DNA from: Candidatus Iainarchaeum sp.
Lineage (GTDB): Archaea > Iainarchaeota > Iainarchaeia > Iainarchaeales > Iainarchaeaceae
Direction: 5' to 3'
DNA: 18,736 nt
NCBI GenBank assembly: GCA_043812975.1
Contig: JBDRLP010000002.1
Coordinates: 1-18,736, forward strand
In this document: positions 4,009 to 14,649 of the stretch, in pieces
How the letters are laid out: every line of letters begins with the position of its first letter
Numbering within the stretch: the stretch's first letter is position 1
Position numbers and translations under genes: made by a program
The notes under the pieces: generated by a model
Databases searched by the model: none
What the model was told of the DNA's origin: nothing
What the model saw: the letters and a program-made list of their open reading frames with translations, nothing else

Positions 4009-4021
4009 AAAAGTATTAAAA
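4009..4021. promoter_or_regulatory. TATA-like element between divergent glyS and tRNA-Thr
   Basis: AAAAGTATTAAAA on plus, TTTTAATACTTTT on minus; spacing fits a leaderless glyS transcript and it may also serve the tRNA. Confidence 0.5.
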
Positions 4022-4063
4022 CCGCTTGTAGCCCAAGTTTAGCGTTATAATAGCCGATTTAGA

Positions 4064-4135
4064 GCCTCCGTAGCATAGTGGTTGTGCACCTGCTTCGTAA
4101 GCAGGGGGTCGCGAGTTCGAATCTCGCCGGAGGCT
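4064..4135 (+). tRNA. tRNA-Thr(CGT), no intron, CCA not encoded
   Basis: Cloverleaf: acceptor GCCTCCG/CGGAGGC, D arm GCAT-AGTGGTT-GTGC, anticodon arm CCTGC-TTCGTAA-GCAGG (CGT at 4096-4098), T arm GCGAG-TTCGAAT-CTCGC, discriminator T, followed by a T-tract. Confidence 0.97.
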
Positions 4136-11303: not shown

Positions 11304-12038
11304 TCATGCTTTTGCAGTTTTCCACAGTATCTGGAAATATTTTTCATAAGAATCAGCAAGTTCCTTATTGTGGATTAATATCCCGATTGGTTTTTCAATC
11401 CAGAGAAGAATCCCGATTTTATCATTTCTTATTATTGTTTCGCTTAAAGGTTCAAAACCATGTCCATGGAACTTTATTGTTGCATGAGGATACTGGCCTG
11501 TTTCTCTGATTTTTTTAATCCATTTTCTTAGTGATTCATTGAAAAGTAGCTTTGCAGAAATTTCTTTTTCTGCTCTTCTTTGGTGATAATCAATCCAGAA
11601 TGTGTCCCCCATCATAACTGATTCAGCAGGGGAACCAATAGTGTGGTGGGTTTTTCCTCCTGCTTCTAAAAGTTCATGGAGTATCTCTCTCATGCCTTTT
11701 ACTCCTCTGAAAGTCATTACTTCCGGCTTTTCCTGTGATGCTCCTTGTTTTGCCAGTAACTCAGGAAGGATTTTTCGTAAATTTTCTTTTTTTTGTTCAA
11801 TATACTCAAGAATATGTTTCGGGTTTGCAGGTTGATACCTGTTTCTTTTTCCTTCTTTGAAATATGAGACAAGTCCTTTGTCAATTAGTTTGTTTAGAGT
11901 CATATGCACGACAGAATTGTGTAAATTTGTTTTGTCAAGGATAGGTCCTGCGGTTGATGTGCCTAATTCAAGCAATGCTATGTAAACTTTAATTTCAGCA
12001 TTAGTAAGACCCACATCTTCCAGAATGGATGTATCCAT
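11304..12038 (-). CDS. TrmB-family transcriptional regulator
   Basis: N-terminal wHTH LEDVGLTNAEIKVYIALLELG...LNKLIDKGLVS; C-terminal effector domain ending IHNKELADSYEKYFQILWKTAK; TTTAAAT 23-29 nt upstream. Confidence 0.92.
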   Translation of the reverse strand: MDTSILEDVGLTNAEIKVYIALLELGTSTAGPILDKTNLHNSVVHMTLNKLIDKGLVSYFKEGKRNRYQPANPKHILEYIEQKKENLRKILPELLAKQGASQEKPEVMTFRGVKGMREILHELLEAGGKTHHTIGSPAESVMMGDTFWIDYHQRRAEKEISAKLLFNESLRKWIKKIRETGQYPHATIKFHGHGFEPLSETIIRNDKIGILLWIEKPIGILIHNKELADSYEKYFQILWKTAKA

Positions 12039-12107
12039 AGTATACTTGTGCTATTGGACAATTTAAACCTATTGTTTTATCCTCCTTTTTTGGAGAATAA
12101 GTGTATA

Positions 12108-12164
12108 TCTATCGCTTCTGCCCCAAGTTTAGTAGGTCCAGTCATCTGGGCAGGAGGCGATAGA
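12108..12164 (+). promoter_or_regulatory. GC-rich stem-loop sequestering the Shine-Dalgarno site of the downstream zinc-finger ORF (putative cis-regulatory RNA or small ncRNA)
   Basis: 5' arm TCTATCGCTTCTGCCC (12108-12123) pairs with GGGCAGGAGGCGATAGA (12148-12164): about 16 bp with one G-U and one bulge, 24-nt loop. The 3' arm contains GGAGG and ends on the base before ATG 12165. Confidence 0.65.
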
Positions 12165-12308
12165 ATGTTGGTATGTTCGTTTTGCGGAGAAAAGTTCGAA
12201 AGAAACCTTGGTGCTGATGCACAAAAACATTTGAGTCACCATGCAGGAATTTACTGCAAATTAATTAAAGTGGATAACAATCTGGGGAATTCAATAAAAT
12301 ACAGTTAA
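12165..12308 (+). CDS. Small C2H2-type zinc-finger protein (47 aa)
   Basis: MLVCSFCGEKFERNLGADAQKHLSHHAGIYC...: CxxC-x3-F-x10-HxxxH; GGAGG SD at 12153-12157. The real start is likely this ATG rather than the GTG at 12048 used in the ORF track. Confidence 0.7.
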   Translation: MLVCSFCGEKFERNLGADAQKHLSHHAGIYCKLIKVDNNLGNSIKYS

Positions 12309-12318
12309 TGGTGAAAAA

Positions 12319-12675
12319 ATGTTACTGGAAGTTTTAGCACATTTGGTAAGCTTTGATGTCACTTGGTTTATACCTTTTATAATGAATAATTTAATCTGGG
12401 TATTTTTCCTTGCGACTCTGGCTCATTTTATTTATGAAAAAAATCTTTTGTTTGGAACAATATTTGTTTCAATTTACCTTTATGCTACTTTTGATTTTGC
12501 AAATGTTTTCGGATGGGTTTTCCAAAAAGGTTTTTTTTGGGCTCCGTTACTCGTATTTCTTGCTTTAACAGTTTATGATGTATTTTTCAAAAATAGTCTG
12601 CAGTTTTTAAGAAGACCAATATTTGCAGGCGGAATATTTTACTCAGCATTATTTTTCATAAATGTGGTGATGTGA
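12319..12675 (+). CDS. Hypothetical integral membrane protein (118 aa, about 4 TM)
   Basis: GGTGA SD at 12310-12314; almost entirely hydrophobic and Phe-rich. Confidence 0.8.
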   Translation: MLLEVLAHLVSFDVTWFIPFIMNNLIWVFFLATLAHFIYEKNLLFGTIFVSIYLYATFDFANVFGWVFQKGFFWAPLLVFLALTVYDVFFKNSLQFLRRPIFAGGIFYSALFFINVVM

Positions 12676-12822
12676 ATGATTTTCCGAAGTTTTTTACATG
12701 CAATTTTCATTTCTTTAGTAGTTTTTGTTATTTTGTTAATTATTGGTTTTGAAGGTTCTTTTTTTGGCTCAATTGTTGTTTTTTTAATGGCTTTTTTGGA
12801 GCTTTTTGGAGCAAGATGGTAG
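12676..12822 (+). CDS. Small hydrophobic 2-TM protein (48 aa)
   Basis: Below the ORF-track cutoff. MIFRSFLHAIFISLVVFVILLIIGFEGSFFGSIVVFLMAFLELFGARW; GGTGA SD at 12666-12670; ATG immediately follows the previous TGA and the ORF fills the gap to the next promoter. Confidence 0.7.
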   Translation: MIFRSFLHAIFISLVVFVILLIIGFEGSFFGSIVVFLMAFLELFGARW

Positions 12823-12853
12823 GAATAAATACTCCTTAAAACTTACTTTACTG

Positions 12854-13840
12854 ATGCAGGTTCTTGAGAAGAAAGGTATTCTATTTAAGGATAAAACAGA
12901 GTTGTTTGTGGATGCGCGTGGCATTAGAAATAAAGAAGCCTTAATCACGCATGCTCATAGCGATCATGCAAAAACTTCCTTAACCAATACGTATTGTATG
13001 ACTCCTGAAACAGCTTCTCTTATTGATGCTAAAAACAAAAAATGCGGAATCAAAGAAATTCCATTCAAAAAGAAATTCAATATAAAGGAGTTTGAATGTT
13101 CATTCCACCCAAATGGCCATATTCTTGGTTCTGCACAATTAAAAGTTTCAAATGAAATTGATGCTGTTCTTACTTCTGATTTCAAATTGCAAAAAAGTAT
13201 TTTGTTTGATGGTGCTGAAATCCTCCCTTCGGAAATTCTTGTAATAGAATCAACTTTCGGAATTCCTGAATATAGTTTTCCTAAGAGAGAGGATGTTTAT
13301 GAGGATATGATTAAGTGGATGCATTCGCACTTAAACAAAAATAATTTCATTGTTCTTGGGGGTTACTCTACAGGAAAAGCGCAGGAACTCACAAAAATTG
13401 TGAATGAATTTTTGGGTGAAACTCCTCTGGTTCACAAAAAAATTTTTGAGCAAAATAAGGTTTATGAAAATGAAGGAGTAAAACTCGGGAATTATCTGGA
13501 GTTAAACCACAACCTGAACGATGCAAATATTCTCATTATGCCTCCTCATCTGATTAATGATGATTTGTTGTTTGCATTGCAGCACCAGATAAAAAGAAGA
13601 GTTGAGCCTGCTATAGCAACCGGCTGGAAAAACCATTCAAAATACAAAACATTCCCTGTTTCTGATCATTCTGATTTTAACGGCCTAATAGAATATGTGA
13701 AACAAAGTGAACCTAAATTAGTTTTAACAACTCACGGGTATGAAAGAGAATTTGCCTCTTATGTTCAGCGAAGATTAAAAATTCCTGCAAAACCTTTAAG
13801 CGAATCAAGACAGATGATTTTACAGGAGTTTAATGTATGA
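12854..13840 (+). CDS. Metallo-beta-lactamase / beta-CASP family nuclease (COG1236-like)
   Basis: ITHAHSDH, GHILGSAQ, SDF, IESTFG, YSTGKAQE, SDHSD, THG. Start moved from TTG 12806 to ATG 12854 (ATAAATA 23-29 nt upstream; avoids overlap with the 48-aa ORF). Confidence 0.92.
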   Translation: MQVLEKKGILFKDKTELFVDARGIRNKEALITHAHSDHAKTSLTNTYCMTPETASLIDAKNKKCGIKEIPFKKKFNIKEFECSFHPNGHILGSAQLKVSNEIDAVLTSDFKLQKSILFDGAEILPSEILVIESTFGIPEYSFPKREDVYEDMIKWMHSHLNKNNFIVLGGYSTGKAQELTKIVNEFLGETPLVHKKIFEQNKVYENEGVKLGNYLELNHNLNDANILIMPPHLINDDLLFALQHQIKRRVEPAIATGWKNHSKYKTFPVSDHSDFNGLIEYVKQSEPKLVLTTHGYEREFASYVQRRLKIPAKPLSESRQMILQEFNV

Positions 13841-14649
13841 ACCTAAATTCTTTGTTAAAAATAAAAAATTTCTTGATGAAAATAAAAGCATCCATTGCAT
13901 TATTCGCAGTTTTAATTTTAACGTATTTTTTTCTTTCAAACGGTAATGTTTTTATTCCGCTTCCAAAGATTTTTTCATTATCTTTTTCAATGAGTTCTTT
14001 GGAAAATATTTTTTCATTTATTTTTGTTCACGAAAATCTTTATCACTTACTTGCAAATGCGTTAACCGTGCTTGGTTATGCTGTTCTGGTTGAACTTTCT
14101 TTAGGTGCACTTGATGTAATTGCTATTTTTATTTTTTCAACAATTATTTCTGCTTTGCTTTTTGCTTTTGTCAATCCAAGCGTTGGATTAATCGGTTCTT
14201 CTATTGGGATGAGCGGATTAGCCGCGGTTTCACTGATTATTGATCCGAAAAGAGCAGTTGTTTTAACAATGGGGTTATTTTTGATTTTATTTTTTATTAC
14301 TCCTTTAATTTTTTCTTCAATAGATTCTGAGGGGCAAAATATTAAGGATGAAAAACTTGTTGTTGAACAACAGATTCAGGAAGCTATAAATCAAGGTGAT
14401 GTTGAACAGCAAAAAGTGTTGGTTGAAAAAAGGTTTGAGATTCAGCAAAAACAAGAGGAATTTGATTTATCCAAAGAATTTTCTAAGAAAACTCCTATAA
14501 ATAACGAAATTCATGCTTTTGGGGCGTTTTTTGGAATGCTTTATTTAATATTGTTCAGGCGAAAAAAGTTTAATAAATCTGTGAGAAATATTTTTCATCC
14601 TAATTTTATTGACTTTGATAAGCATGGTTTGTTCTCTGAAAAGAAATAA
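13837..14649 (+). CDS. Rhomboid-family intramembrane serine protease with soluble insertion
   Basis: FVHENLYHLLAN (HxxxxHxxxN), IGSSIG (GxS, Ser122), HAFGAFFG (HxxGxxxG, His226), about 6 TM; ATGA overlap with the nuclease stop. Confidence 0.88.
   Translation: MNLNSLLKIKNFLMKIKASIALFAVLILTYFFLSNGNVFIPLPKIFSLSFSMSSLENIFSFIFVHENLYHLLANALTVLGYAVLVELSLGALDVIAIFIFSTIISALLFAFVNPSVGLIGSSIGMSGLAAVSLIIDPKRAVVLTMGLFLILFFITPLIFSSIDSEGQNIKDEKLVVEQQIQEAINQGDVEQQKVLVEKRFEIQQKQEEFDLSKEFSKKTPINNEIHAFGAFFGMLYLILFRRKKFNKSVRNIFHPNFIDFDKHGLFSEKK

Follow-up and report, generated by a model that had tools for sequence, protein, structure and literature searches.

RNA thermometers such as ROSE and fourU are weak, mismatched stems in which an upstream strand occludes the Shine-Dalgarno sequence. 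A different arrangement is attributed to the transposase gene of IS10/Tn10, for which Davis, Simons and Kleckner reportedly described fold-back inhibition in 1985: one arm of an inverted repeat is said to lie 5' of the gene's own transcription start, read-in transcripts alone hide the ribosome-binding site, and the gene's own mRNA starts inside the repeat and is translated. In IS200 tnpA, where both arms belong to the mapped 5'-untranslated region (5'-UTR), a stable cis hairpin pairs an upstream anti-Shine-Dalgarno strand with the Shine-Dalgarno sequence and blocks 30S binding. Here, we analyzed an inverted repeat at positions 12108-12164 of an 18,736-nucleotide stretch of DNA from the archaeon Candidatus Iainarchaeum sp. 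(assembly GCA_043812975.1, contig JBDRLP010000002.1), hereafter called the window. The repeat covers the ribosome-binding site of a small operon whose first gene encodes a zinc-finger (ZnF) micro-protein, and it lies in the 126-bp spacer between this gene and a divergent gene for a TrmB-family regulator. At first sight, it could pass for a cis-acting translational switch, which would be rare in archaea. On the evidence, the locus is more probably an ordinary divergent archaeal promoter pair sharing an operator, in which the 5' arm of the repeat would never be part of the main mRNA.

The locus shares with IS200 tnpA a stable cis hairpin and an upstream strand complementary to the Shine-Dalgarno sequence, but here the 5' arm would, by prediction, belong to promoter DNA that is not transcribed. 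The proposed anatomy is the same as that of IS10, with the 5' arm upstream of the predicted start and the 3' arm over the ribosome-binding site. IS10, however, is a bacterial mobile element that protects itself from external promoters, whereas the repeat described here belongs to a chromosomal archaeal operon with a B recognition element (BRE) and a TATA box, and the source of upstream transcripts would be the neighboring divergent promoter. A limited literature search, which is a thin basis for claiming absence, found no archaeal case of fold-back inhibition, and the accessible part of PMC8450116 held nothing on read-in protection.

According to the accessible part of PMC4158304, TrmB-family operators are short inverted repeats located at the BRE/TATA region or at the start site, exemplified by TACT-N3-AGTA and by the Thermococcales glycolytic motif (TGM) TATCAC-N5-GTGATA; sites upstream of BRE/TATA serve activation and sites downstream serve repression. 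For the promoters, we applied the geometry that the available portion of PMC6640164 gives for Pyrococcus furiosus from differential RNA sequencing, namely a BRE (RRAAA) at -36 to -32, a TATA box (WTTTAAAW) at -30 to -23, and a pyrimidine-purine start. The same portion describes one symmetric archaeal TATA box that fires both ways from starts 49-50 bp apart, and it treats such transcripts as noise.

The source genome comprises 1.24 Mb in 68 contigs at about 33% G+C, and fibrillarin and Nop56/58 genes lie inside the window. On the + strand, the 5' arm of the repeat (TCTATCGCTTCTGCCC, 12108-12123) can form 16 pairs, 10 of them G-C, with the 3' arm (GGGCAGGAGGCGATAGA, 12148-12164) around a loop of 24 nt; the stem contains one G-U pair (T12116-G12156) and one bulged G (12154). 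The 3' arm includes the Shine-Dalgarno sequence AGGAGG (12152-12157), 7 nt 5' of the ATG, and the stem ends at 12164, one base ahead of the ATG at 12165, from which the sequence runs on as ATGTTGG. If both arms share one RNA, the Shine-Dalgarno sequence and the base preceding the ATG are locked in a stem of -25 kcal/mol. RNAfold assigned -25.2 kcal/mol to positions 12105-12170, compared with -14.5 +/- 2.7 for dinucleotide shuffles (z -3.96; none of 200 as good), and the 101-nt segment 12075-12175 also folded significantly (-32.5 kcal/mol, z -3.14, matched by 1 of 200 shuffles). The minus strand of the hairpin folds nearly as strongly (-22.5 kcal/mol, z -4.39), so folding is uninformative on which strand matters.

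Among the 18 local folds of -18 kcal/mol or lower on the + strand of the window, the hairpin ranked second, above a tRNA. A 7-mer-seeded scan of the genome, which can overlook stems lacking a 7-bp perfect run, detected helices of at least 16 pairs in 24 of 560 nonredundant folded loci, this hairpin included, or about one per 50 kb, and helices of such length occurred also in coding DNA. The hairpin is non-random, yet not unique. A 131-bp spacer query found no second copy in the genome (the other matches were five at chance level, E >= 0.9), nor did the arm motifs occur again in it, and on these grounds we rejected a copy of a repeat or mobile element. The Rfam scan at gathering thresholds returned only the tRNA at 4064-4135, and a permissive scan of 11980-12360 gave five matches (E 0.56-9.1), all far under gathering scores. 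No terminator-like site was found within 11900-12900, no T-run follows the stem, and no + strand gene lies just 5' of it.

An earlier note on this DNA, written from the letters alone, had described a stem of about 16 bp with a 24-nt loop that covers GGAGG and ends at the ATG, and had judged that it resembled neither an intrinsic terminator nor a known riboswitch. Both sequence and fold confirm this geometry, and the absence of a T-run, of a terminator-like site, and of an Rfam match at either threshold agrees with the two judgments. The note had also placed the hairpin before an unannotated micro-operon; for the first open reading frame (ORF) of this operon, of 47 codons, the ratio of nonsynonymous to synonymous substitution rates of 0.15-0.21 against two orthologues indicates a real gene under purifying selection.

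To place the repeat within its spacer, we used a comparison set of 15 related loci. Left out were L068 and L075, which have the same sequence as L055 in this part, two pairs (L025/L026 and L007/L008) that duplicate the window and the locus in genome G003, and L034 (G021), an N-terminally cut match in which no operator was found; L031, which covers the G016 region with a degenerate operator copy, was replaced by L056 from the same genome. We found four orthologous loci that bear the ZnF gene. Positions relative to the operator are counted from a = 12080, the first base of the palindrome described below.

The spacer holds two TATA-like boxes with a palindrome between them. TATA1 (ATTTAAAC, 12061-12068, minus strand) is near-symmetric, matches WTTTAWAW at seven of eight positions on both strands, and lies 23-30 nt from the regulator ATG. 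With the P. furiosus geometry, it would place the minus-strand start exactly at 12038, the A of the regulator ATG, and hence predicts a leaderless regulator mRNA. Where related loci retain the regulator start, a TATA-like box lies 21-32 nt from its ATG, and the minus-strand BRE-like word for this box is AGAAA in L055, L028, and L065; a plus-side BRE for TATA1 is not conserved by our reading of the aligned loci. TATA1 may also fire rightward, with a predicted plus start at about 12091/12092. It has the same TTTAAA core as the bidirectional P. furiosus box, and 54 bp would separate its two predicted starts (12038 and about 12092), compared with the 49-50 bp reported for that box.

The palindrome TCCTCC-T6-GGAGAATAA (12080-12100) is probably the operator of the TrmB-like regulator. 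A search for the pattern TCCTCCNTTTTNGGAGAATAA gave a single site in each of 8 of the 196 genomes of the order and none for the reversed control, and in those eight genomes the site always lies on the contig that bears the TrmB orthologue. Its distance from the regulator start is about 35-45 nt in the seven loci where that start could be placed; in G016, it lies about 250 nt from the regulator gene. Among 30 metagenome loci that match the pattern, 8 have the same context, only one of which (L072) carries the ZnF gene, whereas 16 belong to a phage-like unit and 6 are otherwise unrelated. The palindrome, TCCTCC-N6-GGAGA(A), resembles known TrmB-family operators in being a short inverted repeat by BRE/TATA, here between the two TATA boxes, that adjoins a gene with a PF01978 domain. 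Relative to each TATA box, it stands on the upstream side, from which TrmBL1/Tgr has been reported to activate, and members of the family are known to regulate their own genes. Its half-site sequence is different, and the regulator matches the TrmB models only in the N-terminal winged helix-turn-helix part. The large hairpin is not this predicted operator. The CCTCCT word that the earlier note had offered as a second partner for AGGAGG, within a mini-palindrome CCTCC-T6-GGAG (12081-12095), is indeed present, but it forms the left half of the conserved DNA palindrome. As a separate observation, G016:C89 (L031/L056) carries a degenerate second palindrome (TCCTCCTTTTAAGAAGAATAA) between the regulator gene and the intact palindrome, which is about 250 nt from the gene.

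The right end of the palindrome, GAATA (12095-12099), doubles as a BRE-like element (four of five positions of RRAAA) for the second box. TATA2 (GTGTATATCTA, 12101-12111, + strand), the predicted promoter of the ZnF operon, overlaps the first four bases of the 5' arm, and its 8-mers GTGTATAT/GTATATCT at 12101-12110 match six of eight consensus positions. A TATA-like box occupies operator positions +21 to +31 in all 15 aligned loci, with GAATA just 5' of it; examples are AATAAATA, GTTTAAAT, ATTTATAA, and TTTTATAT, of which the last three, from distant loci, are near consensus. In sequence, spacing, and conserved position, TATA2 has the features of a BRE/TATA core promoter. It starts 62-64 nt 5' of the ATG, whereas TATA1 lies at -104. 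When perfect TATA matches were collected 5' of 175 genes led by a Shine-Dalgarno sequence, 23 of 31 began between -75 and -36, a zone that includes TATA2 and excludes TATA1, although this genome-wide profile is crude and noisy and lends only weak support.

A predicted initiator (TTTAGTAGG, 12128-12136, + strand) falls into the hairpin loop. The candidate starts T12130-A12131 and T12133-A12134 are pyrimidine-purine steps located 30 nt from the first base of TATA2 (12101 or 12103). TTAGTA is the sole part of the loop that is kept in all three close ZnF loci, its flanks being variable, with TATAGTG or TATGGTG as the corresponding word in other orthologous loci. The layout of the spacer is thus the palindrome at a+0 to a+20, the second TATA-like box at a+21 to a+31, and moderately conserved blocks at a+32 to a+60. 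The 5' arm spans a+28 to a+43, about -26 to -11 of the predicted start; in loci with neither a ZnF gene nor a 3' arm, the sequence aligned with it is the TATA-to-start spacer TACC.CTTC.AC. These data suggest that the 5' arm is promoter DNA. The earlier note had itself pointed to GTATAT (12103-12108) as a box that might place the start inside or downstream of the 5' arm; this word is part of TATA2, whose conserved position in 15 of 15 loci speaks for this placement, and the start itself we infer from geometry.

Counted from the TATA-like word, positions 4014-4044, upstream of the tRNA-Thr gene of the window (4064-4135), and positions 12103-12132 have GTAT..A.CGCTT.T..CCCAAGTTTAG in common and in register. 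The 5' arm resembles this tRNA promoter, and alignment of 12096-12140 with the tRNA-Thr upstream region keeps the TATA-to-CCCAAGTTTAG register and has 28 invariant columns. The word CCAAGTTTAG occurs six times in the genome. The tRNA-Thr upstream region and the ZnF operon promoter may share a cassette.

We favor, with moderate confidence, the reading that the operon mRNA starts in the loop and that the hairpin could block only transcripts initiated further upstream. In this model, TATA1 would drive the leaderless mRNA of the regulator, which would bind the palindrome, and regulation of the operon would run through this site. TATA2 would drive the operon of the ZnF micro-protein and two small hydrophobic proteins. 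The 5' arm would be made up of the end of TATA2 and the TATA-to-start spacer, and the operon's own mRNA, starting at A12131 or A12134 with a leader of about 31-34 nt, would carry the 3' arm only. A start in the loop would leave the ribosome-binding site of this mRNA free, and the hairpin would then be no switch on the main message. In the fold of 12131-12200, AGGAGG is unpaired; that fold is itself not significant (z -1.03) and contains a predicted local hairpin, GUCCAG-UCAU-CUGGGC (12136-12151, + strand). By eye, an analogous GTCC/GGAC pairing is possible in the G003 orthologue.

The hairpin would form only in transcripts from further upstream, such as those of rightward TATA1 firing at about 12092. 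With its ribosome-binding site locked, the long transcript would not be translated, and translation would stay dependent on the operator-controlled promoter. It is conceivable, although we find it doubtful, that the repeat acts in this way as an archaeal fold-back insulator, leaky transcripts from about 12092 that bypass the operator-controlled promoter folding into an untranslatable form and the loop-started transcript being translated. Given the anatomy, the odds between selected insulation and a function-less, lineage-specific quasi-palindrome are roughly even. If the insulator exists, the complementarity seen in 5 of 15 loci (below) would reflect selection that keeps noise from bidirectional promoters from being translated, and the locus would become a test case for archaeal silencing of such noise at the level of translation by fold-back.

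The stem itself is distributed patchily. Whole-leader folding gave -25.2 kcal/mol (z -3.1) for the window, -15.7 (z -1.2) for the closest orthologue in G003 (L060), where the stem is weakened and has, in that lineage, one deletion and up to two mismatches, and -14.1 (z +0.15) for L072, where it is shifted and partly re-formed with changed bases. It is absent from L029 (G004), a further ZnF-bearing locus, which has a different local hairpin and a free GGAG. L028 (G005), which lacks the ZnF gene, has an independent 12-pair stem (ACCTCTTCAACG/CGTTGGAGGGGT; -20.9, z -2.9) between the homologous promoter position and the Shine-Dalgarno sequence of its membrane-protein gene; no such stem exists in its close relative L070.

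Other comparisons point to pairing between the arms. In the G003 orthologue, the 3' arm retains 14 of its 17 positions, compared with a raw synonymous divergence of 0.55 in the adjacent gene. Across the three close ZnF loci, 78% of the cells were paired, compared with 33-50% when the partner was slid, and double changes occurred at three pairs, a number reached by 19 of 500 shuffles; this count covers three sequences and takes its structure from one of them. Such pair-preserving changes are suggestive of selection on pairing. When ribosome-binding sites were matched with the upstream segments (a+12 to a+50) of all 15 loci, a locus's own segment was the best partner in 5 of 15 (L061, L060, L028, L059, and L089), with about one expected, and the shuffle p was at most 0.05 in 4 of 15; L061 and L060 are not independent, and these shuffles were mononucleotide ones. 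Part of the complementarity signal comes free, because the conserved spacer contains C.CTTC and the Shine-Dalgarno sequence contains GGAG.

The earlier note had proposed a translational OFF switch, controlled by temperature, a protein, or an antisense RNA, or else a stand-alone small RNA. Of the switch, occlusion of the Shine-Dalgarno sequence stands if the arms are co-transcribed, but the 5' arm is probably promoter DNA and the stem is patchy. A switch in the main mRNA would need both arms in its 5'-UTR, with a start at or before 12107 (for instance at about 12092 from TATA1), and an OFF element opened by some factor; we think this unlikely, though less so than the other alternatives considered here. 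It accounts for a significant stem over the Shine-Dalgarno sequence that runs up to the ATG, for the double changes and the excess of pairing in the three ZnF loci, for a 3' arm conserved above synonymous sites, and for the independent ribosome-binding-site stem in L028; the G-U pairs favor + strand RNA, and TATA1 is a better box here than TATA2, with a plus-side BRE-like GGACA. Yet TATA2 and its BRE-like word keep their position in all 15 loci, which puts the 5' arm at about -26 to -11, and this promoter would have to idle, whereas TATA1 has no conserved plus-side BRE. L029 has lost the stem, L060 and L072 show a weak one, and L070 has none, so that the earlier note's own reservation, that a stem not conserved or covarying upstream of homologues would speak against it, applies in part, with the three double changes on the other side. 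One of the three sequences supplied the structure, and three are too few for statistics on covariation; Rfam gave no match, and a block of -25 kcal/mol would sit on a gene under purifying selection with no opener evident. A thermometer is unlikely, as a stem with 10 G-C pairs among its 16 and an energy of -25.2 kcal/mol (37 °C) is too stable for thermometer-type opening and suits permanent silencing or no function; compared with known thermometers and riboswitches, the locus also lacks an Rfam match and any conserved loop except the initiator-like TTTAGTA. The stand-alone small RNA, or a terminator, is barely credible: the hairpin is stable and stands in an AT-rich spacer, but it has no T-run, terminator-like site, separate promoter, or evident end, no Rfam match, no second copy in the genome, and no + strand gene just upstream to terminate.

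Template-switch mutation is an origin of quasi-palindromes described in the bacterial literature. A repeat without function, seeded by the complementarity of the C.CTTC spacer and GGAGG, maybe lengthened by template switching and now decaying in a lineage-specific manner, has in our view a slightly smaller chance than the main-mRNA switch. This explanation fits the distribution (strong stems in the window and L028, a weaker one in L060, a shifted one in L072, and none in L029 or L070), the CTTC/GGAG-type core of both strong stems, the deletion and up to two mismatches of the L060 lineage, and the frequency of such helices, about one per 50 kb with coding DNA included. It is at odds with own partners ranking first in 5 of 15 loci where about one is expected, with a 3' arm conserved above neutral sites, and with double changes that keep pairs intact. 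That the arms form a DNA dyad for a protein, either the TrmB-like regulator or the ZnF micro-protein, bracketing the start as a repressor site, we consider very unlikely. The outer arms TATCGC...GCGATA do resemble the TGM half-sites TATCAC/GTGATA of TrmBL1/Tgr (PMC4158304), repressor sites of the family overlap the start site, and the two strands are equally palindromic; however, the half-sites are 42 bp apart here compared with 3-8 bp in known TrmB sites (PMC4158304). The arms occur nowhere else in the genome, and a DNA dyad would be mismatched at the G-U positions. Between the window, L072, and L028, the arms change in sequence but stay complementary, and their spacing varies (about 40 versus 57 bp from center to center), which is unlike half-sites for one protein.

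Several points weigh against the reading that we favor, an operon start in the loop. TATA2 is mediocre (6/8), whereas TATA1 is better (7/8) and has GGACA, a 4/5 match, as its plus-side BRE-like word, so that the major transcript of this locus could be the rightward one from TATA1. The complementarity of the 5' arm to the 3' arm lacks an explanation if the 5' arm stays untranscribed, and the pairing counts, double changes, and 3'-arm retention suggest an RNA that holds both arms. The stem evidence is itself mixed (z -1.2 in L060, z +0.15 in L072, absent in L029 and L070), the TATA profile is noisy, and the swap test drew on related loci and mononucleotide shuffles. The predicted starts derive from comparison and from geometry taken from other archaea; a search of sequencing runs returned no RNA run and one DNA run (share 0.13), whose short, mostly unlike pieces did not cover 12083-12430. 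The locus nevertheless carries a caution for calls of buried ribosome-binding sites made from sequence alone: because an archaeal TATA box lies 23-30 nt before the start, an arm adjoining a TATA-like word is likely to be promoter DNA.

The regulator gene (11304-12038, minus strand) encodes a TrmB-family winged-helix protein of 244 amino acids that matches Pfam PF01978 (TrmB; E 2.3e-13) over residues 6-74. Its matches to the NCBIfam TrmBL1 and TrmB models involve the N-terminal part only, with scores far below the cut-offs. Orthologues with 65-91% identity are present in nine other genomes.

According to the accessible parts of PMC3541406 and PMC6562870, C2H2-type zinc-finger proteins and zinc-finger micro-proteins are known from archaea, those of Haloferax using C(P)XCG pairs. 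The ZnF micro-protein of the window (12165-12308, + strand, 47 amino acids) has instead a C2H2-like motif, C-x2-C-x14-H-x3-H, in which the x14 spacing compares with x12 in the C2H2 pattern C-x2-4-C-x12-H-x3-5-H, and its AlphaFold model shows a beta-beta-alpha arrangement (predicted local distance difference test score 71). Orthologues are 89% (G003) and 81% (L072, a metagenome contig) identical. An alignment of 14 family members shows no variation at C4, S5, C7, and H26 and almost none at D18, H22, and Y30. Neither Pfam nor NCBIfam gave a match, a fold search of the PDB with the model gave no significant match (the sole hit was weak, a SALL4 zinc finger at E 7.2), and a word-indexed protein search returned two proteins, the query and one at 77% identity.

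The second gene of the operon (12319-12675, + strand) encodes a hydrophobic protein of 118 amino acids, membrane-like as judged by eye, that is conserved in related loci and has no family match in Pfam or NCBIfam. Its homologues lie directly behind the same promoter in seven loci without the ZnF gene (L055, L028, L070, L059, L057, L056, and L089), and one is found in a paralogous operon on contig C40. The third gene (12676-12822, + strand) encodes a hydrophobic protein of 48 amino acids; homologues in related loci, which end in ...FLE.(F/V)G.RW, come after the homologue of the 118-amino acid protein. The end of this gene is overlapped by an ORF of 344 amino acids (12806-13840) that resembles a ligase-associated DNA-damage-response exonuclease, with 185.7 bits against TIGR04122, below the cut-off of 325, and a beta-CASP/RMMBL C terminus. 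A rhomboid-like gene (13837-14649) comes next.

In the long leader of the membrane-protein gene of L028 and L070, operator positions +75 to +95 hold a small hairpin followed by T7 (AACAAAATTGTTTTTTTGTTT). As oligo-T could stop archaeal transcription, this element may be an attenuator.

A paralogous module in G003 (contig C25) repeats the order of elements seen in the window, with a TATA box, the palindrome CACCCC-TAA-GGGGGG, a second box (TTTATATC), about 57 nt, and then the ATG of a ZnF gene, which fits the promoter reading. Its leader has no comparable inverted repeat by eye, and its 152-nt upstream region folds at -22.0 kcal/mol, a value obtained without a shuffle comparison. In genome G000, from which the window comes, a divergent Lrp/AsnC-like regulator of 330 amino acids on contig C40 (L017, 394-2189) faces a ZnF gene followed by hydrophobic proteins, one of 60 amino acids included, and on contig C65 (L022, 686-2002) a divergent TrmB-like regulator faces a ZnF gene followed by a hydrophobic protein. 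In both modules, the hydrophobic protein after the ZnF gene has 119-129 amino acids. The sister genomes contain more divergent pairs of TrmB-like and ZnF genes, and every pair comes with a palindrome of its own (GTTGTGGTA-N5-CCACAAC and CACCCC-TAA-GGGGGG, for example). If confirmed, these would represent a compact module, duplicated many times over, that combines a regulator and its palindrome with a ZnF micro-protein and two small hydrophobic proteins and whose operator-regulator pairs could be read by comparison.

Two other families of leader or promoter-proximal hairpins were observed in genome G000. GC-rich leaders of the form GTGCACACCTC-N5-7-CGGAGGTGTCCG-N2-3-start codon, in which an anti-Shine-Dalgarno word CACCTC pairs with GGAGGTG, are present in five copies, on contigs C1 (~39070 and ~13176, both minus strand), C3 (~1908, + strand), C23 (~10985, + strand), and C27 (~65138, minus strand). 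They precede genes for RNA polymerase A'-like, L19e-like, and S19e-like proteins and other genes. These leaders are copies of a repeat family, whereas the hairpin studied here is single-copy and bears no sequence likeness to them. An AT-rich hairpin (CTTTTTCTTTCTT...AAGAAAGAAAAAG) also recurs; it lies directly 5' of 3 of the 22 tRNA genes (tRNA-Arg at C23:17921, tRNA-Glu at C26:15979, and tRNA-Val at C27:74848) and at C1:45331, C12:6090, C27:22903, and C1:29178, and the GC-rich element lies 5' of several other tRNAs instead.

Finally, the 16 of 30 metagenome matches to the operator pattern that were set aside above come from phage-like marine contigs (L062, L063, L066, L067, L071, L074, L078-L084, L088, L090, and L091). 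They have a GC hairpin (GGGGGAGTCTTCGGACTCCTCC), then TTTTTAGGAGAATAACATGG, and then an ORF starting with MEKIMYYETIHQKEEKCSEM, a highly conserved unit that looks like a terminator and a ribosome-binding site unrelated to the locus.

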